From Calditrichia bacterium (lineage in GTDB: Bacteria > Calditrichota > Calditrichia > RBG-13-44-9 > J075): DNA of 57,986 nt. Under the pieces are notes generated by a model. That model saw only the letters and a list, made by a program, of their open reading frames with translations. It had not been told where the DNA came from and did not search any database. Positions 17,156-36,292 of this stretch are shown here, piece after piece (positions within the stretch are counted from its first letter, which is position 1; every line of letters begins with the position of its first letter). Location: NCBI GenBank assembly GCA_050633245.1, contig JBOEGD010000004.1, positions 223,220 to 281,205 on the forward strand, read 5' to 3'. The position numbers and the translations under genes are program-made.

Positions 17156-17295
17156 TTTAACTTTTCTGATTTTTTTTTGCAAGTTTTTGCAATGTTCGCA
17201 ATCTAAGAGTATAGATGATCCAGTGAATCACAGTCCGCTTTATGGGATTTGGTATGGGGATACATTAGCCAATCACAATTCAAGCGGGTAATTCA

Positions 17296-19347
17296 ATGTT
17301 AATTCGATCTGTTTGCGTGCAGTCTCAGTTCTCTCAAATCGTTATTTATCTGTTCCTTTTTCTATTGTGTCTTTTTGTAACCTCTGGTTGGGCTCAGGAA
17401 GATAGTCTGGACGCCAAGGCTGCTCATGATGCATTGTTTGCAGAGAGTCGGTTTCCATCGGCTTCTACCTGCAAAACCTGTCATGCCAGCCACTATGAGG
17501 AATGGTCTGTCTCTGCACATGCCTATGCGCAGCTGAGTCCGGTATTTAATGCTATGCATGCAGAGATCGTACAACGCACTAATGGTACCAATGGCGACTT
17601 TTGCATCCGCTGTCACACTCCTGTAGGCATGAATCTCGAAGAGCCGGTCTTTATGTCGAACCTCGATCGACATCCGACCTCCCGTGAGGGGATTACCTGC
17701 ATTTCCTGTCATCGTGTGAACAAGCCTTATGGCAAGATTAGTGGACGCCAGGCATTGCTCGAAGGCGACATTTTTGATAAGGTTTATGGCAGCCGCGGCA
17801 ATGTAAATCTCCAAGAGGCAGTTGAGAGCGGTAAATATAATATCCAACCACAACGGGGCAAGGCCGGTCGACCGGTACACGCCGAAGCCGAAAAGTCTTT
17901 CTATTTGGTTACCCCATCCTTTTGCGGAAGTTGTCACGACGTGAACCTCTTCAATGGGTTTCGTTTGGAGGAAGCCTTTAGCGACTTTAAAACCTCACCC
18001 GCTTCGGGCCAGGGAATTACCTGCCAGGATTGTCATATGGGTAAACAGCCTGGCGTATTCCTTGGTGAAGACAATTACGACATTGCACCAGCTGCCGTTA
18101 TCGGTGGCCGACCGACACCACCACGCAAGCGAACCAATCATATGTTTGCCGGGCCGGATTACTCAATCGTGCATCCGGGAATCTTTCCACATAATGTCGA
18201 AGCTCAAAAACTCGCTACGCTTCGTGAATGGCTTCAGTTTGACTACAAGGCGGGATGGGGAGAAGATGAATTTGAGGAACAAATTGATGAAGACAACGAA
18301 TTTCCAACCTATCAGTTGAGGGATATTTCTTTTAGCAAGTTGAAGGCAGACCGTGTGCCCAATTCCATATTGGAAAGGCTATCCGGATTGAACAATACCG
18401 TTATTCAAACTGAAGATGACTTTCTCAGACATCTTGCCAGGACTGGTGTCTACAAGATAGTTGAATACAAGGAGCCAATCCTGAAGCACGCCAGGATCGA
18501 TCTGGATAAGTTCCGCTGGGGTACGCGCGATGATCGTGTTGAAGGAAGAGACATAATTAAAACGAATCAGGACCTGTTGGAAAAAATCAGCGAGCAGCGT
18601 CATCAGGTGCTGCGCGCCGGAATTGTTCTCGGTGATATCGTTGTGGATCAGGTAGACAACGATAAGATTAAATTTAAGGTGCAGGTTAGCAACGGTACTA
18701 ATGGACACAGTGTACCAACGGGATTCGATGCAGAACGCCTCTTTTATTTGCGAGTTACCGTTCTGGATAAAAATGACAATGTCGTTTTCGAATCCGGCGA
18801 TCTGGATCCCAACGGAGATGTGAGGGATTTACACTCTCTGTATGTGCACGATGGAAAGTTGCCATTAGATGAGCAATTATTCAGTCTGCAGTCCAGATTC
18901 CTGGTACGCATGAACCGCGGTGGTGAACGCGAGCAGGTGCTTGCCGTTAATTATTCACTCGATCCGCTTCCATTTATCCGACCGTCTACACGTTCCACGG
19001 CAATCCTTGGGCGTCCGGTTGGTGCGCGTAAACACCGTCAGGTTATTCCACCATTGCAGAGTCGCTGGCCGGAATATGTCGTCTCAGAGGATGATTTGAA
19101 AGGAACATCCGGTCCCTACCAGTTAAACGTAAAATTTATTGCCCAGATGGTACCAATAAACCTGATTTTCGAGATTCAAAGTGTGGGGTTTGACTACAAT
19201 ATGTCGCCTCGTGAGATTGCCGACGCCATTTTGGCTGGACAACAGGTGCTATACGACAGAACGATTCCGCTTGAAACGGGCCGATTTACACCAAGCGATG
19301 CAAGAATTCTTTCCAACCACTCAACCAGCAATTTGGGAGGAAATTAA
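17296..19347 (+). CDS. Exported pentaheme cytochrome c (c554-like N-terminal domain)
   Basis: Signal peptide; CKTCH, CIRCH, CISCH, CGSCH, CQDCH; CxxCH..YEEW..SAH pattern; C-terminal GHSVPTG Ig-like region. Confidence 0.92.
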   Translation: MLIRSVCVQSQFSQIVIYLFLFLLCLFVTSGWAQEDSLDAKAAHDALFAESRFPSASTCKTCHASHYEEWSVSAHAYAQLSPVFNAMHAEIVQRTNGTNGDFCIRCHTPVGMNLEEPVFMSNLDRHPTSREGITCISCHRVNKPYGKISGRQALLEGDIFDKVYGSRGNVNLQEAVESGKYNIQPQRGKAGRPVHAEAEKSFYLVTPSFCGSCHDVNLFNGFRLEEAFSDFKTSPASGQGITCQDCHMGKQPGVFLGEDNYDIAPAAVIGGRPTPPRKRTNHMFAGPDYSIVHPGIFPHNVEAQKLATLREWLQFDYKAGWGEDEFEEQIDEDNEFPTYQLRDISFSKLKADRVPNSILERLSGLNNTVIQTEDDFLRHLARTGVYKIVEYKEPILKHARIDLDKFRWGTRDDRVEGRDIIKTNQDLLEKISEQRHQVLRAGIVLGDIVVDQVDNDKIKFKVQVSNGTNGHSVPTGFDAERLFYLRVTVLDKNDNVVFESGDLDPNGDVRDLHSLYVHDGKLPLDEQLFSLQSRFLVRMNRGGEREQVLAVNYSLDPLPFIRPSTRSTAILGRPVGARKHRQVIPPLQSRWPEYVVSEDDLKGTSGPYQLNVKFIAQMVPINLIFEIQSVGFDYNMSPREIADAILAGQQVLYDRTIPLETGRFTPSDARILSNHSTSNLGGN

Positions 19348-19348
19348 T

Positions 19349-20830
19349 ATGAAGATCAGTCATGTGGAAGTCTTGCATACAAGGATTTATCTAATTAAGA
19401 ATGTCTTCGCATTTCTCTTGACGCTGCTATTGGTTTTGACTCCGTCATTAGCTGCAGACGAAAAAGACGAGAAGTCTGGTAAGGATGTACATGCAGATGA
19501 TAATCATAGTCGGTTATCTGATGTACCAATCCCGTTACAGCTTGATGATTTTCCGGGACGAACACCACCATTGTTTGAATGGCCAAATCGTTTTCTGGGT
19601 AATGGAAATTTGTCCAAGGGATTTCAGCTGCCAACGGGTGCAGTGTGGCAACCCTACCTGGTTGTGTTTGGTAATTATCGCAGCGGCCTCCAGCATTTTA
19701 ATACATCACGGGATAATTCTATCTCGGAATGGGCGAACAACCTCGATCTGTTTGCAAATCTATATCTCACCTTTACAGAACGAATTCTTATTGGTTTTCA
19801 ACCATTACAGCAGGACGGTGGTTTTACCGGATTCAACTTCAATAGTGCAAATCAGGGCTTTCAGGATCGCACCAATTTTAATATCACAACCTTGTTCTTT
19901 GAAGGAGACTTCGGAGAGCTGTTTCCATTCCTGGATAAACACGACTCGAAACATTGGGATATAGGGTTCTCCGTTGGTCGTCAGCTGCTGAACTTTCAGG
20001 AAGGCCTACTGATAAACGACATCGTTGATGCCGTTGGCGTAACCAGCGTAAATCTAAAATTGCCATCAACTATTAATACGCGAGTTACTTTGCTCTATGG
20101 CTGGAATCAGTTGAATCGCACCGCCACACCCGGCAGTAACTTCGAAGATGATTTGGCATCAATGACTGCCCTATTTACCGAGACAGACTGGCAAAAAAGT
20201 ACGGTAGCCTTCGACGCCATTTATGTGAATGGCGATAGTACGGCAGGTGATGGTCTGTATTATGGAATTGATGCCGTACAGCGCATGGGACATTTCAACA
20301 CGTCTTTTCGCCTGGTTGGTTCACAACCAATCGGTGTTGAGACAGATTACAACTCGAGTGGTCTGGTACTATTCGGTGAAGTCTCTAAAACCCCAATTGG
20401 CACACATAACCACCTATACCTTAATGGTTACTGGGGGATAAACAAATTTCGATCGGCGGCACGTTCACCGGCAGCAGGCGGGGCCCTGGGAAGAACCGGA
20501 ATACTATATAGTGCTGTCGGGTTAGGACAATTTGGTTCTGCCCTCAATAATTTTGCAGATGATTCCTTTGGCGCAGCACTTGGCTATCAAATGTTCTTCT
20601 CGCATAACCGTAAACAATTGATTCTGGAAGCAGGAAGCCGTTACGCAACGAATATTAGTGGTCAGAGGGCAACAGCGTTTGGTGCACGCTTCCAAACGGC
20701 TATTAGACAGCGTTTTATTCTGGCCCTGGATGGATTCTCTGCATATGACTATAGCAATAGTGCATCACAATTTAGCACGACTAGCAACTTCCAATTTGGG
20801 AGCCGACTTGAATTCCAGGTGAAGCTGTGA
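19349..20830 (+). CDS. Predicted outer-membrane beta-barrel porin
   Basis: ATG 19349 follows GGAGG at 19336-19340; signal peptide ending SLAA; aromatic/Gly-rich amphipathic strands; ends FGSRLEFQVKL; lies between two cytochrome genes. Confidence 0.75.
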   Translation: MKISHVEVLHTRIYLIKNVFAFLLTLLLVLTPSLAADEKDEKSGKDVHADDNHSRLSDVPIPLQLDDFPGRTPPLFEWPNRFLGNGNLSKGFQLPTGAVWQPYLVVFGNYRSGLQHFNTSRDNSISEWANNLDLFANLYLTFTERILIGFQPLQQDGGFTGFNFNSANQGFQDRTNFNITTLFFEGDFGELFPFLDKHDSKHWDIGFSVGRQLLNFQEGLLINDIVDAVGVTSVNLKLPSTINTRVTLLYGWNQLNRTATPGSNFEDDLASMTALFTETDWQKSTVAFDAIYVNGDSTAGDGLYYGIDAVQRMGHFNTSFRLVGSQPIGVETDYNSSGLVLFGEVSKTPIGTHNHLYLNGYWGINKFRSAARSPAAGGALGRTGILYSAVGLGQFGSALNNFADDSFGAALGYQMFFSHNRKQLILEAGSRYATNISGQRATAFGARFQTAIRQRFILALDGFSAYDYSNSASQFSTTSNFQFGSRLEFQVKL

Positions 20831-22806
20831 TTGCCAACTCCACAATAAATAATTTGAATCGCAAATTACCGAAGGTTCTGGTCCTGATATGTTTTGTCTA
20901 CACCTCGGCTGTCTCCGCACAGTCTGCCGAACAAAAAAGCTATCTTCGGCAGGATGTAAGAGAAATACTGGTAAAGGATATTGATCTGGATCCCTGTAGT
21001 CAATGTCATCAATCCGAGTTTAAGGTTTGGAAAAAATCAGCTCATGCTACCGGATTTAATGAGCTGCACAAAAAGGCTGCCGCTCAGCGCATCGTTAAAA
21101 AGATGGGCTTTAGTCTGGTTAAGCGCGAAAGCCTCTGCATGAAGTGCCACTACACTCCAAATATAAAAAATGACAAGCTGATTGCTGTAGCCGGGGTGTC
21201 ATGCGAGTCCTGCCACGGAGAGGCAAAAGGCTGGGAGACACTTCACAGTGATTTTGGAATAGCTGGGTCAGATGGGTTTGGAGAGAAAAAGGCTCAGGAA
21301 AGTGCCGGGCATCGGCAGCAACGATTGGCAGCAACCGAGCAGGCAGGTATGCTGCGTCCGGGAGATATTTATGATGTTGTTGCGAACTGTTTCGAATGTC
21401 ATACCGTTCCACACGAACGATTGGTGAATATTGGTGGACACAGTACTGGCTCTCAGGGGTTTCATCTTCCTGAAAAGATTGAGAAGATCCGGCACAATTT
21501 TTTACAGTCATTTTTGTTCTCCGATGGTACAGAAAACGCGAAGAATCCGCCAGCAAGAAAACGCCTGCTGTACATAACTGGTCGAGCACTGGATTTGGAA
21601 TACAATCTGCGAGGAGCTGCGGAAGCCACGGAGGAAGGCGATTATTTTGAAAATATGGTTAATCGTATAGGCGACGCAGTTGCCGAGCTTGAATTGGTTA
21701 GCGAACGCATTAAGATCCTTCAGGTTGAGAAGATGATTAATACTTATAAAACAGCTACTGTTTCGCTCAACAACAGGGCTGGCCTACTGCAGGCCGCGAA
21801 GAACGTTCAGAGCCAGGCCAAAGACATTCTAAGGGAATACGATGGATCAACCTTTTCAAAGCTGGATTCACTCATTGCAGGTCAAAAAGATAAAGTGTCC
21901 CGAAGGCTGGAGTTGCAGCTTCAGGTTTCACATCAGCCTACGGCACAAGCTGGGGAAAATGCTGCGACCGGTGGTGTTCAAAACCCATACCCGGTAAAGC
22001 CTAAAATTCGGCCCGGCAGCAAGTTTGCAACCATTGGGCCACGCGGCTGCAATTGCCATGATACGCAAGTCGACTGGCTGAAGAACAACTTCCATAACAC
22101 GTCACTGCAGCCTTTTCAGATACTTGATGACAAGGTGCTTCGTATCGCCGTGAACTATGGGATTGCGATAGAGAATATTACTAAAGGCACGTCATTGTGT
22201 ATGGACTGTCATAGCACGGTTATTACCGGAAAGGAATTTAGAGAGGTGCGTAACGCGGTTAGTTGTGAAAGCTGTCATGGGCCAGGTAAAGACTATAAAA
22301 AACCGCATCAGGATGAGGATCGGGGATATGAGATAAGTGCCGGCTTTGGCATGAAGCAGTTGGAACAGGCTAATGTAAGGGCAGCCAATTGCGCAGAATG
22401 TCATTACATAACCGACAAGCGACTTTTGGCTTCCGGGCATCCTTCAGGAAAGGATTTTGATCTTGCCAGGGGAAATGACCGCGTTAAGCATTGGGAAGGG
22501 CCAAAGCTTTCCTCATCCAGCCTCAACTCTGCCTATAAAACGGTTGCTGCCGGTCGTGGCCAGATTCCAGTAGTAGACATTGTAAATATCTACAACCCAA
22601 ATAAGCTGACTCAAATTTCGCAGCTACGAGCTGCAAAATCCAGAGCTCTAAGTGCTATTCGAGAGAAAGTTAGCCCCTGGTCTTCACGGTCCTCGAATAT
22701 CGAGCTAAGCGAATTTCCGGAAATTGATCCAAATGCTTCAGTAGAGGAAATCCTGTTAATATTGAAAAATCGTCTGGAAGAAATATATGAAAAATCCGCA
22801 AAGTAG
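20827..22806 (+). CDS. Exported multiheme cytochrome c with two c554-like tetraheme modules (7 CxxCH + 1 CxCH)
   Basis: CSQCH, CMKCH, CESCH, CFECH, then CNCH, CMDCH, CESCH, CAECH; signal peptide; GTGA overlap with the porin stop. Confidence 0.92.
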   Translation: MIANSTINNLNRKLPKVLVLICFVYTSAVSAQSAEQKSYLRQDVREILVKDIDLDPCSQCHQSEFKVWKKSAHATGFNELHKKAAAQRIVKKMGFSLVKRESLCMKCHYTPNIKNDKLIAVAGVSCESCHGEAKGWETLHSDFGIAGSDGFGEKKAQESAGHRQQRLAATEQAGMLRPGDIYDVVANCFECHTVPHERLVNIGGHSTGSQGFHLPEKIEKIRHNFLQSFLFSDGTENAKNPPARKRLLYITGRALDLEYNLRGAAEATEEGDYFENMVNRIGDAVAELELVSERIKILQVEKMINTYKTATVSLNNRAGLLQAAKNVQSQAKDILREYDGSTFSKLDSLIAGQKDKVSRRLELQLQVSHQPTAQAGENAATGGVQNPYPVKPKIRPGSKFATIGPRGCNCHDTQVDWLKNNFHNTSLQPFQILDDKVLRIAVNYGIAIENITKGTSLCMDCHSTVITGKEFREVRNAVSCESCHGPGKDYKKPHQDEDRGYEISAGFGMKQLEQANVRAANCAECHYITDKRLLASGHPSGKDFDLARGNDRVKHWEGPKLSSSSLNSAYKTVAAGRGQIPVVDIVNIYNPNKLTQISQLRAAKSRALSAIREKVSPWSSRSSNIELSEFPEIDPNASVEEILLILKNRLEEIYEKSAK

Positions 22807-24454
22807 TGGCGCTGAGCAGAGCAGTTCAGCGAGCTTTTCAAATACACAGCTAATGCGCACGCAACAGCACAGCGATCGCTGGAGTGATTATCAGGGTAAT
22901 GACAACATAATAAAGTTTTCGAGAAGGCTCTCTGTTAAGCAATTGCGAACGCTGGAGCTCTTTAACGACTACTCGGATGAATTCCTGACCGAGATCAGTC
23001 CAGACATTTCTATTGCACAATGGATGAGCGGCACGGTTCTTTTTGAAGAAGGTAGCTATATCGACCTGATGTTTTTTGTGATCAATGGAATCGCAGAAGC
23101 TACGTTAAGCATTTTGGCTCCTGAGAATGAACGGCCAAACAGACCTATCTTTGCAACTCGCCTGCAGGAAAATCCTTCAGCAGAGGAAAGGGTGGTTACA
23201 AGCCAAACAGTCTTACATCAAAAGATAGCGTCTATGGAGGCCCGTCCAGATGTAACAATGCTAAGCGCCGTCGATTTTCAATTGAATGACAGCGATGCGT
23301 TTAAGTTGGGAAAAGGTGATATGTTTGGCGAGATTGGTGCTCTGAACGGCTGGCCTCAATCGGTTACTGTCAGAACAATTTCCGACTGCTTGCTTTGCCA
23401 GATTCGTCTACCGGCTCTGCGAAAGATGAAAGATCATTCCGAGACGTTTAAGCAAAAAACCGATACGGTTTATCGCGATCGATTTCTTTACTCACAGTTG
23501 AAGGCAACTCCCTTGCTTCGCGATTGTAGTCCGGCCTTGATTAATCACCTCAAGGATAAAGCGGAGTTAATCTCAGTTTCCCCGGGAAAGCCGGTAGTGC
23601 TGGAAGGAGAGGCAGTAGATGCTTTCTACTTACTGCGTTCAGGTAATATTAAGCTGACCCAGCGTGTGGGTAGCGGTGAAGCGACGGTCAATTATCTCTC
23701 GAAAGGGATGACCATTGGTGCGGTAGAACTGCTAATCGAAGATATTGAAAACTGGGCCTGGAGCGCAACTTCTGTTGCATATTCTGAATTAATCAAGATT
23801 TCACTGGCCGATTTTACTCTCATAACCCAGCACCATCCGCAAATCGAAAGGCGCCTATGGCGTAGCGCAGTTCGAACGATAAAGGAAAGTGGGTGTTCCC
23901 GAAAAAACCTGGAACAGTCCGAGTTGATTCAATTCTCACTTGAAAGAGGATTGGTTGAAGGCAATAGTATGCTGCTAATCGATCTTGAAACATGTGTACG
24001 ATGTGATGACTGCGTTCGGGGATGTGCAGCCGTGCATGATGGGCGTCCCAAGTTTGTACGCGAAGGTGAGAAGTATGAAAATTATCTAATTGCGCGATCG
24101 TGTTATCACTGTGAAGATCCGGTTTGCCTAATTGGCTGTCCTACGGGAGCTATCAGGAGAGCCAATGTGGACGAGATTGTAGAGATTAATGAAAAACTTT
24201 GCATTGGCTGCAGCAACTGCGCAAACAAGTGTCCATATGATGCCATCGTTATGCACGAAACGGGGGAAAGCTGGTCGGACGATGCTTTACCGGAACACCT
24301 GCGTGGCAAAGAACGCAAGGTAGCAAGTAAGTGTGATCTCTGCTTTAAAACGAATAATGAACCGGCATGCGTCGCAAATTGCGCGCAGGGTAGTGCAATT
24401 CGCATCAAGAATATCACTGACTTTCAGGCATTGATGGAGAGGAAAAATGCGTAG
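22787..24454 (+). CDS. Tandem cyclic-nucleotide-binding domains fused to a DmsB/NrfC-type 4x[4Fe-4S] ferredoxin
   Basis: LFEEGS..D.MFFVING...GDMFGEIGAL and VVLEGEAVDAFYLLRSG...GMTIG; Cys sets CVRCDDCVRGC, CYHCEDPVCLIGCP, CIGCSNCANKCP, CDLC..PACVANC; no signal peptide. Confidence 0.92.
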   Translation: MKNPQSSGAEQSSSASFSNTQLMRTQQHSDRWSDYQGNDNIIKFSRRLSVKQLRTLELFNDYSDEFLTEISPDISIAQWMSGTVLFEEGSYIDLMFFVINGIAEATLSILAPENERPNRPIFATRLQENPSAEERVVTSQTVLHQKIASMEARPDVTMLSAVDFQLNDSDAFKLGKGDMFGEIGALNGWPQSVTVRTISDCLLCQIRLPALRKMKDHSETFKQKTDTVYRDRFLYSQLKATPLLRDCSPALINHLKDKAELISVSPGKPVVLEGEAVDAFYLLRSGNIKLTQRVGSGEATVNYLSKGMTIGAVELLIEDIENWAWSATSVAYSELIKISLADFTLITQHHPQIERRLWRSAVRTIKESGCSRKNLEQSELIQFSLERGLVEGNSMLLIDLETCVRCDDCVRGCAAVHDGRPKFVREGEKYENYLIARSCYHCEDPVCLIGCPTGAIRRANVDEIVEINEKLCIGCSNCANKCPYDAIVMHETGESWSDDALPEHLRGKERKVASKCDLCFKTNNEPACVANCAQGSAIRIKNITDFQALMERKNA

Positions 24455-25280
24455 AACTCCCACATCCAGATTGAGTGCCTATGTTCGATCGCCCGGAATG
24501 TTCACAGGTTTTTTGGTGATCATACTTCTAGTGACGGCGAGCTATTTGCTGACTTCATTCTTTCCTGACTTGGAGGTAGAGCAGAACCTGCGCCTGGTTT
24601 ATGGTAGCATTGCCGCCTGCCTGTTAGTCGCGGCAATGCTGTATGGCATACGGCAACGGAGGGTGAAGTTGAACTGGGGAAGAAGTAATACCTGGCTGCA
24701 GCTTCACATTTATGGTGGCGGGTTGTTTCTCCTGCTGATGTTGATGCACAGTGGATTTAAGGTGCCGGTGGGATGGATCACCTGGTTGCTATGGACGCTA
24801 AGTTTTTGGATGACCGTCAGTGGTTTGCTTGGCGTTATTCTGCAAAAATGGATTCCCAAGCTGTTGTCTTCCGGGTTGAATGTTGAGGTAATATATGAAC
24901 GCATTCCCGACTTGGTTTTAGATATCCGCAGTAAGAGTGAAGAGCTCGTTGGAGAAGCTGAGCTGCCGCTGCAAGATTTTTATAGACAGCATCTTGCTGT
25001 CGCCTTCTCTGCACCAAAGAATCGTTTCATCTACTTTCTTGATATCACGGGAGGTTCTCAGGCACGTTTACGACAATTCGATTATTTGCGAGCTCTGCTT
25101 AGTCGTGATGGTCGAGCTTCATTGAATACTCTGGAGAGCTATTACAAAACGAAGTTGGAGTTAGATGCACATTATACACTGCAGAAGGCATTGCGCTGGT
25201 GGCTTTTTTTACACGCCCCATTATCGTTGTTGCTAATAGTTTTGCTGCTCCTGCATCTGTTCGCGGTGGTTTACTATTAA
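24447..25280 (+). CDS. Integral membrane protein, probable diheme cytochrome b (ferric-reductase-like TM domain)
   Basis: About five TM helices; two His pairs exactly 14 residues apart within TM helices (H87/H101, H256/H270). Confidence 0.8.
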   Translation: MRRTPTSRLSAYVRSPGMFTGFLVIILLVTASYLLTSFFPDLEVEQNLRLVYGSIAACLLVAAMLYGIRQRRVKLNWGRSNTWLQLHIYGGGLFLLLMLMHSGFKVPVGWITWLLWTLSFWMTVSGLLGVILQKWIPKLLSSGLNVEVIYERIPDLVLDIRSKSEELVGEAELPLQDFYRQHLAVAFSAPKNRFIYFLDITGGSQARLRQFDYLRALLSRDGRASLNTLESYYKTKLELDAHYTLQKALRWWLFLHAPLSLLLIVLLLLHLFAVVYY

Positions 25281-25315
25281 ATCGAAATTGACCCAAAGGT
25301 ATTGCTTAGAATCGC

Positions 25316-26947
25316 ATGAAAAATAAGAAGCCAAATAGGAAGAGAAAAGGAACGTTCACCGGAGCCAGATTACCGGTTGCGAGGCGATATATCCGTCCTG
25401 TTTCATCGAAAGGACGTTTGATGTTGACGTTTCTTCTTGCCGGCTGTGCAATGCTGGTTGTGTTGATTGGTAATCACATTTATTCCGGAAATGTCATGTC
25501 GAACGGCCCCCTTTCATCAAAACATGCGAATTTTGAAAACGACTGCGCAGCATGCCACTCAACCCCGTCCATTTCAGAAGGGATTGTTGCGGCGGTTGAA
25601 GATACGAAGTGCCTTACATGTCATAACGATGCCATGGGTGAGCTAAAATCTTATGAATTTGCGGTTCACTATATGTATCGCAGTCATGATAAACGTCGAA
25701 CCGTCGTAAAAGATAGTGTTCAGGCCCACGAAATGACCTGCGCAAACTGTCATGGGGAACATTACGGCAGAGACGGTCAACTAACTCATGTGGCTAAATC
25801 TATTTGCCAATCCTGCCATCAATACGATTCCTTTAATAGCGGGCATCCTGAATTCCAATTTGCCAGAGAGGAAATACCCGATCAGGCAAATCTGAAGTTT
25901 ACTCATGCGTTCCATGTAAAAGAGCTCCAGCGTCGTGGTGGTGTATCAACAACGGAGGAGGCTTGCGCAAGCTGCCATCAAACAGACGTCGGTGGGAAAA
26001 GCTTCAAACCTATTCGCTTCGAGTCCGCCTGCTCAGAATGTCACCTTGGACCGCTTAATCCAACACCTACAGCGGAGCTGGCAGTACAGATTCGCAGGCG
26101 CTCAACAGTGCCAGGTGTGCAGAGCCTTAAGACGATACAATCTACCAATGCACCGGGAAATTCCTGGGCCCGGTTCGCTAATCCTAATGAATATGATGAA
26201 TACGATAATACTATCGTTAAGCAGCTTCTTCATCATAAGGATCCATGGATCTTGTTTAACCTGCGGTTGCTGCGCAAGCAACTTTTTCCTCAAGCGGGTC
26301 TTGCCGATCTTCTGGCAAGTGATGGAAAAACGGTTCGTCAGGAATCTGCACAGATTTACCATGAGGCTATTGCCGCACTTGAAACTCAGGTGCGCGAACT
26401 GCGGTTACACCCGTCGCCTGTTGTTCATGAAGACCTGGAGCGCGTAGCCGACGAGCTGGTAAGGCTAAAAAAGCTGTTGGCCAATCCTGGCGATAGCCAA
26501 TTTGACTTTCGAAAGTTTGAATTGGGTCGAACGCAGCTGGCCCCGGCTTTTGAAAAAGACTCTACGAAACTCACTCGCTACAAGGCCTTTGTCGACGTGC
26601 TAACTGCTGAATGTCAGACCTGTCATCTAGTAGAAAATGCCACAATACTTCGCGTTCAAAAAGATCAACAGATTCTCACTCGCGCAGAATTCAGGCATGA
26701 TGCGCATGTGGTCCAAAATAACTGCCTCGATTGTCATCAGGGAATTGATTTCGCAGGCTTAGCGGAGCTTACGGAAATACCAGCTGAGGCAGATAACGCG
26801 GGAATCCAAAACATTCCCGTTATAGCAACATGTCAGGGATGTCATACGCCGCAGGCAGCCAGCAATAAGTGTATGACCTGTCATAAGTTTCACCCAAGCA
26901 AATCGCACCTATCTCAATTACACTTAAAAGTTGAACAGACATGGTAG
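25316..26947 (+). CDS. Membrane-anchored decaheme cytochrome c (cytochrome c3-like)
   Basis: Basic N-terminus plus one TM; CAACH, CLTCH, CANCH, CQSCH, CASCH, CSECH, CQTCH, CLDCH, CQGCH, CMTCH; c3-type FxHxxH motifs (FTHAFH, FRHDAH). Confidence 0.92.
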   Translation: MKNKKPNRKRKGTFTGARLPVARRYIRPVSSKGRLMLTFLLAGCAMLVVLIGNHIYSGNVMSNGPLSSKHANFENDCAACHSTPSISEGIVAAVEDTKCLTCHNDAMGELKSYEFAVHYMYRSHDKRRTVVKDSVQAHEMTCANCHGEHYGRDGQLTHVAKSICQSCHQYDSFNSGHPEFQFAREEIPDQANLKFTHAFHVKELQRRGGVSTTEEACASCHQTDVGGKSFKPIRFESACSECHLGPLNPTPTAELAVQIRRRSTVPGVQSLKTIQSTNAPGNSWARFANPNEYDEYDNTIVKQLLHHKDPWILFNLRLLRKQLFPQAGLADLLASDGKTVRQESAQIYHEAIAALETQVRELRLHPSPVVHEDLERVADELVRLKKLLANPGDSQFDFRKFELGRTQLAPAFEKDSTKLTRYKAFVDVLTAECQTCHLVENATILRVQKDQQILTRAEFRHDAHVVQNNCLDCHQGIDFAGLAELTEIPAEADNAGIQNIPVIATCQGCHTPQAASNKCMTCHKFHPSKSHLSQLHLKVEQTW

Positions 26948-28905
26948 AGTCTCTATTACATGGGAAGTTAATCGAAAATTATCGAATCCTCAGCGTACTG
27001 GGAACAGGCGGTATGGGGACGGTCTTTCGCGCATTTGATGAAGAGCTGAGGCGAGATGTTGCCTTAAAGATGATGAACCCTCGCTTTACGGAGAACGAAT
27101 CCTTTGTGCAACAATTTCGCAAAGAAGGCATTTCTCAGGCGCGGCTAAAACATCCAAATATTGTTGATGTCCACGCTCTGCGTGAGACAAAATTTGGACT
27201 CTTTATAGTTATGGAATTTATTGACGGTATTACCCTTGCAGAAAGCATCAAGCAGGAGGGGGCAATGCCGTGGAAGCAGGCGTTGCCATTGTTCATTCAT
27301 ATTATTAAAGGGCTAAGTCATGCGCATCAAAAGGGAGTTATCCATCGCGATATAAAGCCTGGAAACATTATGATGACACGAGGCGGTAACGTTAAAGTGA
27401 GTGACTTCGGAATCGCCACCATCAGCCAGGATCCGCGCATCACCAAAACTACTTTAACAGGCGGCACATTGGCCTATGCTTCACCCGAACAGCTGAAAAG
27501 TCTTAAGCTTGCCGATGAGCGTAGTGATGTTTATTCAGTTGGGATGACTTTCTATGAAGCGCTGGCAGGTAGTTTGCCCTTTGACGAAAACCAAACTGTT
27601 CAGGCTGTGCGAAATCAGATCATCGCCGGAAAGTTGCCTTCACCACGCCGCATTAATTCCCAAATCCCGGCTGATTTAACCAAGATCGTGATGAAGGCAA
27701 TTCACAAAAACCCTGAAAAAAGATATCAAAATCTTAATGAGATGCAGACCGATCTGCGGACGATTCAACAGCTCTACTTCCTTACAGAGGACACTGAGCT
27801 AACCAGTAGTCCTTCGCCGAAACGAACGCGTTCACGATCATTCAGCAAAAGACTACTGATGACCCTATTTTTATCTGCAATGATTTTTGCAGGCTACTCA
27901 ATGGACTTTCACACGATGCTGATGAATTGGAGCCGTTCAGCTGCATCTGAGGATAGTCTTATCTCGATAGCGTCTACACCTGAAAACTCCTTTATCTATT
28001 TCGATGAAAAAGTTGTTGGCATCACGCCGATATGGCGGCGCAAATTTCCGGTTGGCAAGCAAGTGAGTGTTAAAATTTCGAAGACCGGTTTTCGTTCACT
28101 TGATACTACAATCACTCTTGCCAAAGGCAGTAATCGAGAATTCTCATTTGCACTGGCGCGTGAGGATCAAAATGATGCTCGTGCAGTGCCGCGTGCTGAA
28201 CAAACGGAAGTCGTTAGATCTTTGCCGGAAGCGTCAGTATCAAAATACGGCGCGATACAAATTAATTCTACTCCATCTGGAGCAGCAATTTGGTTAAATG
28301 GCAAGATCCTCGAGAATCAGAAAACCCCAACAGTTATTCGTAAATTGCCGTTTGGAAATCATGAGATTGTTCTTCGCAGGAGTGGCTTTAAGGATTATTC
28401 AGAAAATGTGCTTGTTGAAGAGGGATATGCCACGGAGCATACGGCAAAGCTGGTTGCTCGGAAGGGGCAATTAAGCGTTCTCGTTCTTCCCTACGGCTCG
28501 GTTTTTATTAACGGACGCTTAAAAAAGGAAAATACCCACCTGGCTTATAATACTGAATTGCCGGGTGGTTTATATACCATTCGAGCGACACATCCGATGT
28601 TTGGGGTTTGGGAGAAGCGAATTCGCATCTCTGCGGATAAACATGTCGAGTTGTCGATCGATTTCAATCGCGTCTTCGATGTTCGGATTACCGCTTTTGA
28701 CAAAGAGAACAAACCTGTTATGGCCGAGATCTACATTGACGGTAAAGCCACCGGTTACACCACGCCTAAGAAAATTCAGTTGCGCCTCGGTCGCCATTCA
28801 TTCGAAGTGCAAAAGGATGGTTATCGGTTAGCTGGTGGGGCGCAGGTAGTTGATTTGGAAGAAGAAATGTCAAAGCCGTTGCGCCTCCAACTGGAAAGTG
28901 ATTGA
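26941..28905 (+). CDS. Hanks-type Ser/Thr protein kinase with TM and extracytoplasmic PEGA repeats
   Basis: GTGGMGTV, VALK, HRDIKPGN, DFG, GTLAYASPEQ, RSDVYSVG; TM; ISSTP/INSTPSGAAIWLNG-type PEGA repeats. Confidence 0.95.
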   Translation: MVESLLHGKLIENYRILSVLGTGGMGTVFRAFDEELRRDVALKMMNPRFTENESFVQQFRKEGISQARLKHPNIVDVHALRETKFGLFIVMEFIDGITLAESIKQEGAMPWKQALPLFIHIIKGLSHAHQKGVIHRDIKPGNIMMTRGGNVKVSDFGIATISQDPRITKTTLTGGTLAYASPEQLKSLKLADERSDVYSVGMTFYEALAGSLPFDENQTVQAVRNQIIAGKLPSPRRINSQIPADLTKIVMKAIHKNPEKRYQNLNEMQTDLRTIQQLYFLTEDTELTSSPSPKRTRSRSFSKRLLMTLFLSAMIFAGYSMDFHTMLMNWSRSAASEDSLISIASTPENSFIYFDEKVVGITPIWRRKFPVGKQVSVKISKTGFRSLDTTITLAKGSNREFSFALAREDQNDARAVPRAEQTEVVRSLPEASVSKYGAIQINSTPSGAAIWLNGKILENQKTPTVIRKLPFGNHEIVLRRSGFKDYSENVLVEEGYATEHTAKLVARKGQLSVLVLPYGSVFINGRLKKENTHLAYNTELPGGLYTIRATHPMFGVWEKRIRISADKHVELSIDFNRVFDVRITAFDKENKPVMAEIYIDGKATGYTTPKKIQLRLGRHSFEVQKDGYRLAGGAQVVDLEEEMSKPLRLQLESD

Positions 28906-28948
28906 GGGTAGCAGCAGGCACATAACATATAGCGGAAAGGAAAATAAA

Positions 28949-29572
28949 ATGACAAGATACCTGTATTCTTTTTCACCCTGGAATTCAAAGCTGAGCCTGG
29001 TTTTGTTCGCCTTGCTTTTCTCTGTGCAGACTTCTTTTGTAGTCCATGCTCAAGATGCACATGATTGTGAGGAAAAATTACTGGCTGCGGAAGAAAAATA
29101 CTTTACCGGTTACTTCGAAGAGTCCATTCAATTAATTGAGGATTGTTTGCAGCAAGGGGAGCTTACAGAAGCAACTAAAATTAAGAGCTGCAGGTTGCTC
29201 AGCTTGAACTTTCTCGCAGATGACAACACTGAGAAGGCGACGCTCTGTGTAAAAAAACTCCTCGCTATGAACCCGGATTACTTGCCTGATGAAGAAAAAG
29301 AACCACGCGAGTTTGTTGAGTTGGTTTACACTGTAAAACTGGATATCCAGAAGACAAATGAAGCGCTGCAAACGCAGCTTCTTGCACTTCAGACAGCGCA
29401 GGATAAACCCTCCAATGAAAGCGTGTCCGGGGGGAATGGAAAGTGGTTACTACTTGCCGCTGCTACCGGTGGAGTTGTGTCGGCGATTGTTGTTCTGACC
29501 ATGCGTCAGAGCGGGGATGATGGAAATGGTAATGGTAATGGGAATGGGAATGGAAACCCCGGGCGGAACTAG
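28949..29572 (+). CDS. Exported TPR-like helical protein with C-terminal hydrophobic helix and (GN)n tail
   Basis: ATG 28949 after GAAAGGAA; signal peptide ending VHA; helical domain; KWLLLAAATGGVVSAIVVL; GNGNGNGNGN. Confidence 0.7.
   Translation: MTRYLYSFSPWNSKLSLVLFALLFSVQTSFVVHAQDAHDCEEKLLAAEEKYFTGYFEESIQLIEDCLQQGELTEATKIKSCRLLSLNFLADDNTEKATLCVKKLLAMNPDYLPDEEKEPREFVELVYTVKLDIQKTNEALQTQLLALQTAQDKPSNESVSGGNGKWLLLAAATGGVVSAIVVLTMRQSGDDGNGNGNGNGNGNPGRN
29522..29557 (+). repeat. Hexamer repeat GGNAAY encoding (Gly-Asn)n
   Basis: gga aat ggt aat ggt aat ggg aat ggg aat gga aac. Confidence 0.85.
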
Positions 29573-29610
29573 AAAAGCAAATAACAGGCTGGAAGAAAAG
29601 GAGCTCAGTT

Positions 29611-30081
29611 TTGCATGCAAAATTAATATGTCAGACCGGATCTCATATCGGAAGCAAATTTGTTATAGGAGAAGAAGCAATTATTGGTCGAGACGCAGTT
29701 AATGATATTACCATCGTTGAACCAACGATAACCAATACCCACGTACGGATATTTCTTGATGCGCAGCAAGGCTGCTATTTTATTGAGGATCTTGGAAGCC
29801 GAAATGGCACGACAGTCGATGGCGTCTCGATTAGTGGCAGACAGCGGCTGGAAAAAATGCACGTAATAACTCTGGCCCGCAAGGTCGATCTAATCTTTGT
29901 TTTAAGTAAGAAGGCATTGCCGGAGTTGCAGCTGAAAAAGAATGGTAATCGTTTAGGTGAAACACCTGCTCTAAGACAAACCGCGGTCGAAGACTCTGCA
30001 TTCTCACTACCCAGGTTTAATAGAAGTCCGGATGCTCCGGATCCTAAACAAACTCATTTTGGTGACGGCTTCGATGACTAA
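29611..30081 (+). CDS. Stand-alone FHA-domain protein
   Basis: IIGRD..NDI, TITNTH, IEDLGSRNGT; TTG start after GGAG; low-complexity C-terminal tail. Confidence 0.88.
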   Translation: MHAKLICQTGSHIGSKFVIGEEAIIGRDAVNDITIVEPTITNTHVRIFLDAQQGCYFIEDLGSRNGTTVDGVSISGRQRLEKMHVITLARKVDLIFVLSKKALPELQLKKNGNRLGETPALRQTAVEDSAFSLPRFNRSPDAPDPKQTHFGDGFDD

Positions 30082-30122
30082 ATTTAGCCTGATAGATACT
30101 GTAAGCAAGGAACAATTATACC

Positions 30123-32444
30123 ATGTCTAATCCCATCGAAATATTGAATAATGGTGAAATAAAACTTAAGGAGCCTGTTGTTCTGCCTCATGTTTTAGAT
30201 ATGTTGATTGTCGGAGGCGGTCCAGCGGGAACTGCTGCTGCATTCCGGGCAAAGGAGCTTGGTCTATCGGCACTAGTGATCGACTTTGACGATATACTAC
30301 GGCGAATCCGAGACTATGCGAAGGAAAAACCGATTCTTCCAAACTATGGTGGAACAGACAACGTTCGTTTTCCCAAAGGTGGTAAGCTGTTTTCCAAACT
30401 TCACTTTTCCCCAATCGACAAAGATCAAATGCATCAGCGATGGAAAAGATATTATCATGAATACAGCGTGCCTGCCAGAATAGGAATAGAGTTAATTTCT
30501 CTTGCAAGATGCGATGATCATATCTGGGAGGCCCAAATAAAAAATCACAATACCCAGAGCGAAGAGGTCTTGCTTGCAAGGCATGTTGTCATCGGCATTG
30601 GAAAAGGCTTTCCACGTCGATTTGATATTCCGGGCAACAGCGACGGTATTATTCATCGTCTTTCTGATGCCAAATTATATGTTGATGCACCGGTATGCGT
30701 GATTGGTGGTGGAACATCTGCCGCTGAAGCCGTTATTGCAATTTCAAATGCCAAGTCGCGTGCCGGTAACTCAACAGCAGTGTATTGGTCTTATCGCGGT
30801 GCCAAAATGCCGAGAGTCTCTGCGGCACTTTCTGAAGTGTTCTTTGAGGCCTACATGCAGAACGGCAATATTCGTTATTATCCTGGAAGTGAACCGGTGG
30901 CCGTTGTAACCTCACGGGAAAAGGGCGACTACCTATCTGTACAAGTCGATCGTCGAGAGATCCCGGGACGTCCGGTTGAAGCTACAAGCCTTCAGTTTCC
31001 AAAGGATAAGGTAATTGCCTGTATCGGAGAAGATTTGCCTACGAGTTTTTTGGATGGCCTCGGTATTCATATGATCGCCGGTGGAGAGAAAAACAAAAAG
31101 CGTATGGTAGTAACACCATTTTTGGAAACACAGCAAGAAAATGTCTTCCTGATAGGAGATATACTTAGTCAGATATATCTCGAAACGAGTAATTTTAATG
31201 CCGATCCCGCTTCTTTTAAAGAAGTAAAGCATCGCGGAAATATAAAATCTGCGTTAAAAGACGGCTTTTTGGTGGCAGAAGCAGTTTCGCAAAAGATTAA
31301 GGGTGTCGATAAAATTCATGTTCAAATTAGATACGCCGATGCTACCGAAAACCCTCCCGGTAATACCACTCTCATTTCGCGAATGGGTAACGGAATTCCA
31401 TCCTCGGCAACAGAACGGAATATTGGCACTGATTTTTCAGGCACTTCCATAGAGAGTGGAGCGTACCTAATGCGTTGTCTGCACGATGATCTTGAAGGAG
31501 AAAGTTTTAAACTTTCCAGGAATACACCAATGACCATTGGCCGGAAACAAAGTGATATTTGTTTTCCGCAAGATATGCTTTTGTCTGACACCCACGCATC
31601 GATTGAGTATAAAAATAGTAGGTATATTCTCACCGATACCAATAGCTCGAATGGCGTATTTTTTAAAGCGGCGGGTGGTAAGACGCTTGAGATTAAGACA
31701 GGATGTCTTATTCGCATCGGGAAGCAATTTCTTCAGCTACAGAGGGTAAAAGAAAAATTTGCGCTGCTTCATTATGACATCAATGGGAACCGGAAGAATG
31801 AATTCCAGCTTCCCGATAAGACGATTGTTCTCGGGAGAGAGGCACCGGATGTTAGTCTGGATTCAGAAGATATGATGTTGTCTCGCAGGCATCTGGCAGT
31901 CCTTACAAAAAAGGACAAGGTGTTTATACGCGATCTAAAAGGTCTTAACGGTACCTATGTTAAAGTGGATGAGCCTCTTGAATTGAAATCCGGAGATTGT
32001 TTTAGGGTGGGAAAGCAGGTGCTACAGTTCATTTCCGTTGCTGAAAAAGTATCGATTTCAGGATCCGAAGTGCCACCTGTATCAGACTCTCTTCAACTAA
32101 ACGACATATCGGAGTCTTCCGTTGCTGCTACACAAGAAAATACGTCTATCGGCGAGCTGACAATCACCTTCAAAAATAGCGGGAAGGTTCTGCCCTTTCA
32201 GAAGGGACAGAGCATCTGCGAGGTTGCGGAAAAGAATGGCATTGAGATTACAGCAGAATGCCATTCTGGTAGTTGTGGTAGCGATCCAATTCGTATTGTA
32301 TCGGGATTGGAGCATATTGTACCACCAGAAGATTCAGAGATAACGACAATTGAAGATATTTGTGAGTTGGAGGCCGGGAAGTGCCGCATGTCCTGCATGG
32401 TGCGCCCATGTGGCCCTGTGGTGGTGGAAGTGCTTAAACCGTAG
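30123..32444 (+). CDS. TrxB/FNR-like FAD-NAD(P)H oxidoreductase fused to two FHA domains and a [2Fe-2S] ferredoxin
   Basis: IVGGGPAG, VIGGGTSAAE, SYRG, VFLIGD; FHA motifs IGR..LSDTH..SNG and LGR..LSRRH..LNGT; CHSGSCGSD...CRMSC. Confidence 0.9.
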   Translation: MSNPIEILNNGEIKLKEPVVLPHVLDMLIVGGGPAGTAAAFRAKELGLSALVIDFDDILRRIRDYAKEKPILPNYGGTDNVRFPKGGKLFSKLHFSPIDKDQMHQRWKRYYHEYSVPARIGIELISLARCDDHIWEAQIKNHNTQSEEVLLARHVVIGIGKGFPRRFDIPGNSDGIIHRLSDAKLYVDAPVCVIGGGTSAAEAVIAISNAKSRAGNSTAVYWSYRGAKMPRVSAALSEVFFEAYMQNGNIRYYPGSEPVAVVTSREKGDYLSVQVDRREIPGRPVEATSLQFPKDKVIACIGEDLPTSFLDGLGIHMIAGGEKNKKRMVVTPFLETQQENVFLIGDILSQIYLETSNFNADPASFKEVKHRGNIKSALKDGFLVAEAVSQKIKGVDKIHVQIRYADATENPPGNTTLISRMGNGIPSSATERNIGTDFSGTSIESGAYLMRCLHDDLEGESFKLSRNTPMTIGRKQSDICFPQDMLLSDTHASIEYKNSRYILTDTNSSNGVFFKAAGGKTLEIKTGCLIRIGKQFLQLQRVKEKFALLHYDINGNRKNEFQLPDKTIVLGREAPDVSLDSEDMMLSRRHLAVLTKKDKVFIRDLKGLNGTYVKVDEPLELKSGDCFRVGKQVLQFISVAEKVSISGSEVPPVSDSLQLNDISESSVAATQENTSIGELTITFKNSGKVLPFQKGQSICEVAEKNGIEITAECHSGSCGSDPIRIVSGLEHIVPPEDSEITTIEDICELEAGKCRMSCMVRPCGPVVVEVLKP

Positions 32445-35573: not shown

Positions 35574-36245
35574 TTACATTTTTTCTTCGTCGAAGAAGAA
35601 GCGGATATGATCTAAGCTCTCAAGCTGGTTCAGCTCTTTTACGAACTGAGGGCTTGCGTCTTTGTGTTTCAAAACGACAAAATAAGATAGATCAAACTTT
35701 TCATCTACTCCGAGGGCTTGCATGTTTACCAGACTATGACTTTTGCAGTATTTCTTGAATATGGGTAGAAACGATTGATTTTCATCCTCCAGGACACTTT
35801 GAAATTGAATCAGAAAGTCCTTTTTCTGGGGCACAGCATATTGAGTTTTTGAGAGGATCAGTATAATTCCACCGATAAAGATGGTCGCAAAAAATGCTCC
35901 GATGCGTACGCCGACACCGGCAGCCATGCCCACTGCAAGTGAGAAGAAGATGAAAACAATATCTTGAGTGCTCTTTACCGCGGTTCTGAAGCGGATGATA
36001 GACATCGCGCCAACCAAACCGAACGCCCGGGCTAAATTGTTGCCGATTACCATAATAACAAGAGCGGTAATCATCGATAATAGAACCAGCGACTGCACAA
36101 AGCTTGGTGAATAATTAGGGCTTTCGCAGCTCCAGCGATAAATATAGGAAATAATAAATCCGCAAAAGAAGGCCATTAACAGGTTGAATACAACCTCGTC
36201 AAATTCCAGCGCGGTAATAAAGACATTCTGAAATTCATTTAACAT
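35574..36245 (-). CDS. DUF4956-family membrane protein
   Basis: IMVIGNNLARAFGLVGAMSIIRFRTAVK..DIVFIF...GMAAG; adjacent to the VTC gene. Confidence 0.9.
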   Translation of the reverse strand: MLNEFQNVFITALEFDEVVFNLLMAFFCGFIISYIYRWSCESPNYSPSFVQSLVLLSMITALVIMVIGNNLARAFGLVGAMSIIRFRTAVKSTQDIVFIFFSLAVGMAAGVGVRIGAFFATIFIGGIILILSKTQYAVPQKKDFLIQFQSVLEDENQSFLPIFKKYCKSHSLVNMQALGVDEKFDLSYFVVLKHKDASPQFVKELNQLESLDHIRFFFDEEKM

Positions 36246-36292
36246 CTTATAAAATCCTTTTTGTTCAAAACTAATTCTGTCGGGTTCGTTGT

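Follow-up and report, generated by a model that had tools for sequence, protein, structure and literature searches.

A ten-gene relative of ptdABCDEFG in Calditrichia: a possible kinase-controlled conduit from NAD(P)H to the cell exterior

Known conduits and the Ptd clusters

The known extracellular electron-transfer routes of Gram-negative bacteria take their electrons from the quinone pool, and Mtr and Pcc draw them from quinol dehydrogenases. Here we describe a cluster of ten genes (g1 to g10) from a Calditrichia bacterium which, in contrast to Mtr and Pcc, includes a cytoplasmic NAD(P)H module. It occupies positions 17296-32444 of a stretch of 57,986 nucleotides (nt) of contig JBOEGD010000004.1, and this whole stretch is called the window in the following. 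Judged from its genes, the cluster is a distinct and undescribed variant within the Ptd kind, for which there is a name but as yet no characterised member. We see about even chances that it is a clade-specific Ptd variant that forms a conduit from NAD(P)H to the outside of the cell and is gated by threonine phosphorylation.

The genes ptdABCDEFG were named in a preprint, the main text of which calls their function "completely unknown" and lists Alpha- and Gammaproteobacteria, Nitrospirales, Planctomycetes and saline sites for the carriers (bioRxiv 10.1101/2023.11.21.568154). It describes three cytochromes, the pentahaem PtdA, which has a beta-sandwich, the tetrahaem PtdD and the decahaem PtdG; the further products are the porin PtdB, the FAD/NAD(P) oxidoreductase PtdC, the iron-sulfur protein PtdE with a cyclic-nucleotide (cNMP) domain, and PtdF, a membrane protein similar to ferric reductases. 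Neither FHA domains nor kinases, Rhodothermales or Ignavibacteria are mentioned in that main text. By homology, the window genes g1 to g6 correspond to PtdA, B, D, E, F and G in turn and stand in the same order, but PtdC is absent and g10 appears in its functional place, PtdD is doubled, and a kinase (g7), g8 and an FHA protein (g9) are added. The cluster further differs from Ptd in the loss of an Arg from the cyclic-nucleotide-binding (CNB) pocket and in a CxCH where the second tetrahaem module has its first haem site, and four [4Fe-4S] clusters are counted here for the PtdE-type protein, where the preprint gives two. Literature searches returned no second description of ptd and nothing that joins an FHA domain with a multihaem cytochrome, a porin and a ferredoxin. 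The initial annotation, which was made from the sequence of the window, had stated that no characterised system of this make-up was known; this still holds for characterised systems, but the ptd genes as such had already been named in the above preprint.

Several better known systems share parts of the design. In the part of PMC11976967 considered here, the pentahaem cytochrome c552 of T. tepidum is structurally grouped with ExtKL of Geobacter, whose gene neighbours that of the porin ExtI. As in these ExtHIJKL/PHC clusters, a pentahaem protein of the c552/ExtKL type is encoded in the window beside an outer-membrane barrel. Unlike the window, Ext clusters to our knowledge do not have an input module of iron-sulfur protein, dihaem protein and flavoprotein. 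With MtrCAB and Pcc (OmbB-OmaB-OmcB) the cluster has in common the concept of multihaem cytochromes that are threaded through or docked to a barrel. However, the DmsE/MtrA model TIGR03508 scores g1 and g6 with 29 and 33 bits against a cut-off of 192, which gives no family membership, and g2 resembles the 18-strand Occ/AlgE barrels instead of MtrB. NOX/FRE enzymes lead electrons in the way proposed here from NAD(P)H via a flavin to two stacked bis-His b haems across the membrane, but in the window these parts are on separate polypeptides and would be connected by an extra relay of a 2Fe-2S and four [4Fe-4S] clusters. The combination predicted here, a four-cluster ferredoxin on a dihaem cytochrome b, is also found in FdnGHI and Hya, from which the window differs by an iron-sulfur subunit that is predicted to be cytoplasmic and that carries CNB domains.

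Two clades, the exchanged reductase and the inner-membrane entry

Related loci were collected by a pattern scan of 185,579 species genomes, which gave 320 stretches encoding a g4 relative. The best 80 of these, close kin included, were taken with their flanks and compared by calling and clustering of open reading frames (ORFs) and by tblastn with ten proteins from the window and six encoded elsewhere among the loci; the locus counts given below refer to this set. Among 40 relatives of the genome, full-length g4 was found only in two, G003 and G005. G003 has all ten genes in the same order with 40-82% identity, and G005 has three paralogous cores. One of the 80 loci (L032) and G003 are possibly one and the same assembly, two more (L020 and L022) may be contigs of G005, and none of the three is independent evidence.

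In a quick IQ-TREE phylogeny of g4, two clades are separated by one branch with an SH-aLRT of 100. According to the record titles, clade A, in which g4 is about 50% identical to that of the window, comprises Calditrichia, Rhodothermales, Gemmatimonadota, Ignavibacteria, Zixibacteria and Bacteroidota, and clade B, with about 30% identity, comprises Alpha- and Gammaproteobacteria, SAR324 and Planctomycetota. The view that the genes form one conserved system was borne out for the core g3-g6: in loci with enough flank, g5 and g6 accompany g4 in 38/38 cases in clade A and 29/30 in clade B, and g3 does so in 38/38 and 26/28. Clade-B loci have the order g1-g2-reductase-g3-g4-g5-g6 and fit the published ptdABCDEFG gene for gene, in content as well as in order.

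The reductase, by contrast, is strictly clade-specific. When only loci with full flanks are considered, g10 is present in 21/21 loci of clade A and 0/17 of clade B, and PtdC in 0/21 and 17/17, respectively. g10 matches the Pfam families Pyr_redox_2 (73 bits), FHA (76 bits in two stretches) and Fer2 (22.5 bits, cut-off 21), and its nearest PDB structures are the thioredoxin reductase (TrxR) 7A76 (E 2e-14) and YpdA. Its GxGxxG motifs GGGPAG and GGGTSA are invariant and residues 1-400 are free of CxxC, features that would place it on the FNR-like side of the TrxR-like reductases and not among the disulfide reductases. The Fer2 ligands C713, C718, D721 and C758 are invariant in 29 sequences, and thus an Asp (D721, window 32283-32285) replaces the third Cys of the plant-type [2Fe-2S] motif in all 29. 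Such a Cys3Asp 2Fe-2S site has a precedent in SdhB of E. coli. PtdC is composed of FAD_binding_6, NAD_binding_1 and Fer2, with a canonical Cx4Cx2C in 21/21 sequences, and 20/21 of these begin with a hydrophobic anchor, whereas a hydrophobic 19-mer is found in just 1/29 members of the g10 family. As judged from these features, g10 is soluble, PtdC is membrane-anchored, and the two reductases are non-homologous.

No PtdC was found in the window with tblastn, and none on its contig; the best match in the genome was one of 31% to an FNR core on contig C10. The related genome G005, however, has a canonical ptdABCDEFG with PtdC on contig C39 (locus L019; 54% identity to an alphaproteobacterial PtdC) beside the clade-A copies on its other contigs, which means that both types occur in this family. 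Homologues of g10 are numerous (876 at E <=1e-10 among 8000 candidates scored), and their names in the sources do not go beyond 'FHA domain-containing protein' or thioredoxin reductase/FHA/ferredoxin. The strongest argument for a wire that leads from NAD(P)H to the outside is that one core is combined with two NAD(P)H-flavin-2Fe-2S reductases that are unrelated to each other.

The wire is also supported by the predicted docking of g4 and g5. g4 is without a signal peptide and matches cNMP_binding (81 bits in two stretches) and the Fer4 dicluster families. In 58 sequences, 15 of the 16 Cys of its four ferredoxin-type motifs are invariant and the remaining one is at least 90% conserved, which points to four [4Fe-4S] clusters. 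Matches to the DmsB, DsrO and TtrB models were below cut-off and all named equivalog models were far under it; together with the four Cys motifs this suggests that g4 is a relative of the DmsB/NrfC/HybA-type ferredoxins and not a member of a named enzyme. In g5, the four His of the two Hx13H pairs, H87/H101 and H256/H270, are invariant in 54 sequences, and its AlphaFold2 (AF2) model has a pLDDT of 93.7. Hidden Markov model matches of g5 to Ni_hydr_CYTB (25/54 family members), Ferric_reduct (7/54) and DUF4405 are weak and all below cut-off.

Complex modelling, which had been recommended in the initial annotation, was carried out for the iron-sulfur domain of g4 (residues 372-555) and g5 and gave an ipSAE of 0.68, with 0.00 for the best of three controls; this mark is reached by 116/157 solved complexes and 2/215 mismatched pairs. 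At least 79% of the contacts recur between the runs, and the pLDDT of the partner is no lower than 77. In the modelled interface, cluster motifs 1 and 4 of g4 lie against residues 70-84, 133-150 and 246-250 of g5, beside H87/H256; the positive-inside rule predicts that this surface, close to the haem of H87/H256, faces the cytoplasm.

Cytochromes, outer module and signalling parts

The two halves of g3 are 31% identical to each other (E 4e-14), the N-terminal half matching the PtdD of clade B and the C-terminal half the short tetrahaem proteins of clade A. By this comparison g3 is a fusion of two tetrahaem modules, in other words a PtdD in tandem. Its CxCH (residues 408-411, window 22048-22059) is the first haem site of the second module. 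Of 18 long homologues, 14 have CxCH at this site and four have CxxCH; in 19 short clade-A tetrahaem proteins the equivalent site is Cx6CH (15), CxCH (3) or Cx4CH (1), and in clade B it is canonical in 24/24. Non-canonical spacing of a haem motif may require a dedicated haem lyase. The decahaem protein g6 has its anchor, a hydrophobic segment at residues 32-58, after a basic tail. In clade A this cytoplasmic tail is conserved and basic (KGxF...RLPVAxxYxxP) and has no conserved Thr. The PtdG decahaem proteins of clade B (L078:12336-12650 and others) instead have a Cys-rich cytoplasmic N-terminal extension of about 90 amino acids (aa) with the repeated pattern CG..W/GxPC..GP..G.C, which is absent from clade A and may be a metal or cluster site.

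The N-terminal hydrophobic signal of g1 spans residues 6-34. Its only match in the PDB is the pentahaem c552 of T. tepidum (5ZE8, E 9e-11), and its best NCBIfam match is the ExtKL model NF040886, where 34 bits against a cut-off of 250 indicate a distant relative only; the identity to the g1 genes of other loci is 34-62%. For g2, no family match was found in Pfam and NCBIfam. Its interpretation as a porin is in line with the AF2 model, a beta-barrel with a pLDDT of 81.3 that Foldseek matches to OccK, AlgE and MOMP porins with E values of 1e-12 to 1e-9 (OccK11, 4FSP, 2.5e-12). In related loci g2 always adjoins g1. Both genes are present in 16/17 full-flank loci of clade B and in 11/21 of clade A, and in the remaining 10/21 they are replaced by a 1230-aa decahaem-LVIVD protein, a protein of about 570 aa that could be assigned to no family and an HbpS-like protein, so that one of two outer modules is found in 21/21 clade-A loci. 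An alignment of the 572-aa gene that stands in the place of g2 (c11) with g2 had an hhalign probability of 0.08, which does not support a porin identity.

The replacement was seen in Ignavibacteria, Zixibacteria and Bacteroidota (L052:1601-8761 and 17271-21425; also L042, L046, L048, L049, L055 and L058), and such loci have a PP2C phosphatase, a Ser/Thr protein kinase (STPK), a TPR+CsgG-like protein and a TPR protein downstream. In the G005 locus with the canonical ptd genes (L019, 2736-14082), PtdA and PtdB are 73% and 66% identical to g1 and g2 of the window, but the core genes only 27-37%, which suggests that the outer module has been exchanged between the two types.

The kinase g7 has the motifs HRDIKPGN and DFG, and its PEGA match is spread over three stretches. 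A Hanks-type kinase is directly adjacent in 17/21 clade-A loci, from at least five phyla and in three different positions, and lies inside the cluster only in Calditrichia. PP2C phosphatases were found in 8/21 and TPR/CsgG-like proteins in 10/21 clade-A loci; with the same queries, none of the three was found in the 17 clade-B loci. FHA and g10 occur together in 27/27 clade-A loci with flank, and in all 27 g9 lies between g6 and g10. The proposed linkage of Ser/Thr kinase and FHA genes to the cluster is thereby confirmed for clade A. The relatives of g9 mostly have two FHA domains and about 310 aa. The FHA domain of g9 and both FHA domains of g10 pass the Pfam cut-off, and the OdhI, FhaB and TagH models are matched by g9 and g10 below cut-off. 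In the second FHA domain of g10, G571, R572, S587, R588, H590 and N609 are invariant in 29 sequences; as these include the conserved Gly-Arg, Ser-x-x-His and Asn of FHA domains, binding of phosphothreonine (pThr) is predicted. Independently of this, a different multi-FHA protein of 383-389 aa was also found directly after PtdG in two gammaproteobacterial clade-B loci (L065:14889-16040 and L086), so FHA control is not exclusive to clade A.

STPK-PP2C-FHA switches are known from the type VI secretion system (PpkA-PppA-Fha1) and from OdhI/GarA. They share with the cluster a Hanks-type kinase with a periplasmic sensor part and FHA readers, and with some of its relatives, as counted above, the PP2C phosphatase; the differences are that the presumed target here is a redox chain and that two FHA domains are built into an oxidoreductase.

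The initial annotation had the conduit wired to cNMP as well, which has to be given up for this locus. In an alignment, the first CNB pocket of g4 has PQSV where the R subunits of PKA have PRAA. The pocket reads WPQS in 33/33 clade-A sequences, with Gln in place of the phosphate-binding Arg, and PR[STA] in 24/28 clade-B sequences; the second pocket is also without the Arg and deviates from the canonical form in clade A and clade B alike. Canonical cNMP binding is thus predicted to have been lost from the CNB domains of this g4. It seems from these comparisons that the control logic was exchanged together with the reductase: clade B combines a tethered reductase with a canonical cNMP pocket, and clade A a soluble FHA reductase with a kinase, a phosphatase and a degenerate pocket.

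Proposed route, alternatives and gene layout

In the route that we propose, g10 would oxidise NAD(P)H at its FAD and pass the electrons via its own Cys3Asp [2Fe-2S] cluster to the four [4Fe-4S] clusters of g4. This protein would be docked to g5 from the cytoplasmic side, and the pair of bis-His b haems in g5 would conduct the electrons across the inner membrane in a way that bypasses quinones. The membrane-anchored decahaem g6 and then the octahaem g3 would relay them through the periplasm, and the pentahaem g1 and the barrel g2 would bring them to or through the outer membrane and to an extracellular or surface acceptor, for which Fe(III)/Mn(IV), humics and O2 are candidates. The receptor kinase g7 with its periplasmic PEGA domains would create pThr sites. 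These would be recognised by the FHA domains of g10 and g9, by which the soluble reductase would either be brought to the membrane complex or be set free, as in OdhI/GarA. As the electrons would go from the negative to the positive side, no energy would be conserved, and NAD(P)H and the membrane potential would be drained if the conduit were left open; such a dissipative outward flow would explain a tight control. The order of carriers is the one already suggested in the initial annotation and is still the best reading in view of the conserved core, the reductase swap and the docking, while we infer the direction of the flow, the terminal acceptor and the phospho-gating.

A wider formulation is possible, and we advance it more tentatively. 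According to this, the clusters encode a quinone-independent wire across two membranes, the input flavoprotein of which docks only after a receptor Ser/Thr kinase has phosphorylated the complex. It would be a bacterial, phospho-gated counterpart of the NADPH oxidases and ferric reductases with a wide distribution in Calditrichota, Rhodothermales, Gemmatimonadota, Ignavibacteria, Zixibacteria and KSB1, and would have arisen from a cNMP-gated ancestor by a swap of both the reductase and the control logic. If this is true, a conduit that is directly fed by NAD(P)H and controlled post-translationally represents a different design from the quinone-linked routes. It would be a candidate for unexplained extracellular reduction (of iron, manganese and humics, possibly also superoxide formation) by abundant sediment and soil heterotrophs that are without Mtr or Pcc. 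The two clades would then offer a natural comparison, with one core, two unrelated reductases and two modes of control, the canonical cNMP pocket on the one hand and FHA domains with a kinase on the other, and a function for the g10 family would annotate many genomes.

Several points weigh against the proposed conduit. It is deduced from sequence comparisons and models throughout, with direction and acceptor taken from thermodynamic considerations, and the putative co-transcription of the ten genes from their spacing. The locus counts overstate independence because the best 80 of 320 stretches include close kin. The kinase is missing from 4/21 full-flank clade-A loci and PP2C from 13/21, including the window. 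A search for a conserved, clade-A-specific Thr that could be the FHA target found only T492 of g4 (window 24260-24262), a weak candidate phospho-site in the loop between cluster motifs 3 and 4 that is conserved to 91% in clade A and replaced by Ile (19) or Val (4) in 25 clade-B sequences. For g5, the fold matches do not exceed the helical-bundle background: VIA-align gave Z 8.3 for CybB (5OC0) and 7.0 for FdnI and HyaC, all within that background, and Foldseek found nothing in the PDB at E <=1e-3. The docking of g4 and g5 used our own alignments, and its score may partly reflect the likeness to known structures because complexes of iron-sulfur subunit and cytochrome b are solved for FdnHI and HyaABC.

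The same hardware could also act on a soluble substrate, as a reductase of the periplasm or the cell surface. In that case g1 would be a catalytic pentahaem protein, NrfA-like or sulfur-related, with NAD(P)H as its electron source, and the role of the barrel would be no more than to enclose it or to let in a substrate such as nitrite, NO, hydroxylamine, sulfite, selenite or peroxide. The 430-aa non-haem part of g1 would suit an enzyme; PtdA is reported to share COG3303 with NrfA and ptd to be found in nitrite oxidisers (main text of bioRxiv 10.1101/2023.11.21.568154), and a role in sulfur metabolism has been suggested for the c552 of T. tepidum in the considered part of PMC11976967. However, all five haem motifs of g1 are CxxCH and none is CxxCK, the NrfA, NrfB and NrfH models are far under their cut-offs, and the replacement of g1/g2 with retention of the core fits an interchangeable outer module better than one fixed enzyme, and we think that a catalytic g1 is unlikely. 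Less likely still is an inward wire, in which an extracellular or periplasmic donor would feed g5, g4 and g10 and finally NAD(P)+ or ferredoxin in the cytoplasm. Every cofactor of the chain can carry electrons both ways, and the Hmc/Tmc-type complexes of sulfate reducers do carry electrons inward; outward flow is nevertheless favoured because electrons moving inward must oppose the membrane potential and reduce NAD(P)+, which requires a donor below about -320 mV. The low potential described for the c552 of T. tepidum (PMC11976967, in the same part, and the title of Chen et al. 2019 in its reference list) would be in favour of such a wire, while no linked hydrogenase or formate dehydrogenase was found in the best 80 of 320 loci. 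It also does not fit well with the carrier lineages, most of which we take to be mainly heterotrophic.

The signalling domains on both cytoplasmic redox proteins and the two histidine-kinase genes that flank the cluster could be read in favour of a redox sensor, in which the haem chain would report the external redox state and the CNB and FHA domains would be the output. For a sensor, 23 c haems would be superfluous, and so would a dedicated NAD(P)H reductase that is kept through a non-homologous swap; moreover, the flanking histidine kinases are not conserved in G003; we consider this explanation improbable. Finally, the kinase, g8 and the FHA genes could be unrelated neighbours of a plain Ptd conduit. 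Homologous clusters that lack the porin or the kinase and FHA genes had been named in the initial annotation as evidence against its proposal, and such clusters do exist in part: clade B is without the kinase and without homologues of g9 and g10 (0/17), and the outer pair is exchanged in the clade-A loci mentioned above. It is also only in Calditrichia that the kinase lies inside the cluster. Nevertheless, the FHA domains are fused into the reductase itself, and the constant company of FHA and g10 as well as the adjacency of the kinase across phyla and positions make a chance neighbourhood very improbable. The phospho-gated conduit from NAD(P)H to the outside remains the reading that we favour.

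The ten genes (Table 1) are co-directional and tightly packed, as had been noted initially and at the same coordinates, with -20 to +43 nt between neighbours when the ATG starts are used for g2 (19349, chosen over GTG 19181) and g8 (28949, chosen over TTG 28850). The block is bounded by a divergent gap of 193 nt upstream and a convergent gap of 23 nt downstream, each to a histidine-kinase gene on the opposite strand. A scan for promoter-like sites (24, against 23.8 in shuffles) and terminator-like sites (22, against 16.4 +/- 3.6) was uninformative. N-terminal signals of g1 and g2 were found by a hydropathy scan; that of g3 was recognised by eye only, the scan having found none.

Table 1. Genes of the cluster with their positions in the window
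Gene and predicted product	Position	Strand	Basis
g1, PtdA-like secreted pentahaem cytochrome c with non-haem C-terminal domain, 683 aa	17296..19347	+	5 CxxCH, 5ZE8 match
g2, PtdB-like outer-membrane beta-barrel, 493 aa	19349..20830	+	AF2 barrel, Foldseek porins
g3, periplasmic octahaem cytochrome c, two PtdD-like tetrahaem modules, 659 aa	20827..22806	+	7 CxxCH + CxCH, Cytochrome_C554 77 bits
g4, PtdE-like cytoplasmic protein, two CNB folds and four-cluster [4Fe-4S] ferredoxin domain, 555 aa	22787..24454	+	Pfam cNMP_binding, Fer4
g5, PtdF-like five-helix membrane protein, predicted dihaem cytochrome b, 277 aa	24447..25280	+	four invariant His
g6, PtdG-like decahaem cytochrome c with N-terminal membrane anchor, 543 aa	25316..26947	+	10 CxxCH, Cytochrome_C7 + Paired_CXXCH
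g7, Hanks-type Ser/Thr kinase, three PEGA domains, 654 aa	26941..28905	+	Pkinase 171 bits, PEGA 118 bits
g8, small envelope protein, 207 aa from ATG (240 aa from TTG 28850)	28949..29572	+	two hydrophobic segments
g9, single-FHA protein, 156 aa	29611..30081	+	FHA 51 bits
g10, soluble TrxR-like flavoprotein with two FHA domains and [2Fe-2S] ferredoxin domain, 773 aa	30123..32444	+	Pyr_redox_2, FHA x2, Fer2

The initial count of 22 CxxCH and one CxCH proved correct, and the CxCH is conserved at a homologous haem site. All 22 CxxCH of the window fall in g1, g3 and g6 (38 stop-to-stop frames of at least 150 aa were considered, 18,676 aa in total), and when the residues of each cytochrome were shuffled 2000 times, the mean number of CxxCH was 0.006-0.038 and the maximum 2. 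The descriptions of g4 as a protein with two cNMP domains and four [4Fe-4S] clusters, of g5 as an Hx13H membrane protein, of g7 as an STPK with PEGA domains, of g9 as an FHA protein and of g10 as a flavoprotein with two FHA domains and a [2Fe-2S] domain agree with the Pfam/NCBIfam results and the conservation. The label TPR-like for g8, on the other hand, found no confirmation, as searches of Pfam and NCBIfam gave no match and only two hydrophobic segments were seen; a homologue of g8 with 46% identity is found in G003 only, and weak matches occur in L025, L040 and L056.

The surroundings of the cluster in the window are unrelated to it. At 55-1365, 51641-53569, 53842-55791, 39603-44300 and 35574-37045 they include genes for a 1565-aa LTD/CotH/cadherin-like protein, for a pair of VTC-domain and DUF4956 proteins and for three proteins whose tails are sorting signals of type IX secretion; further PAS histidine kinases and a TonB-dependent receptor are also encoded in the surroundings.

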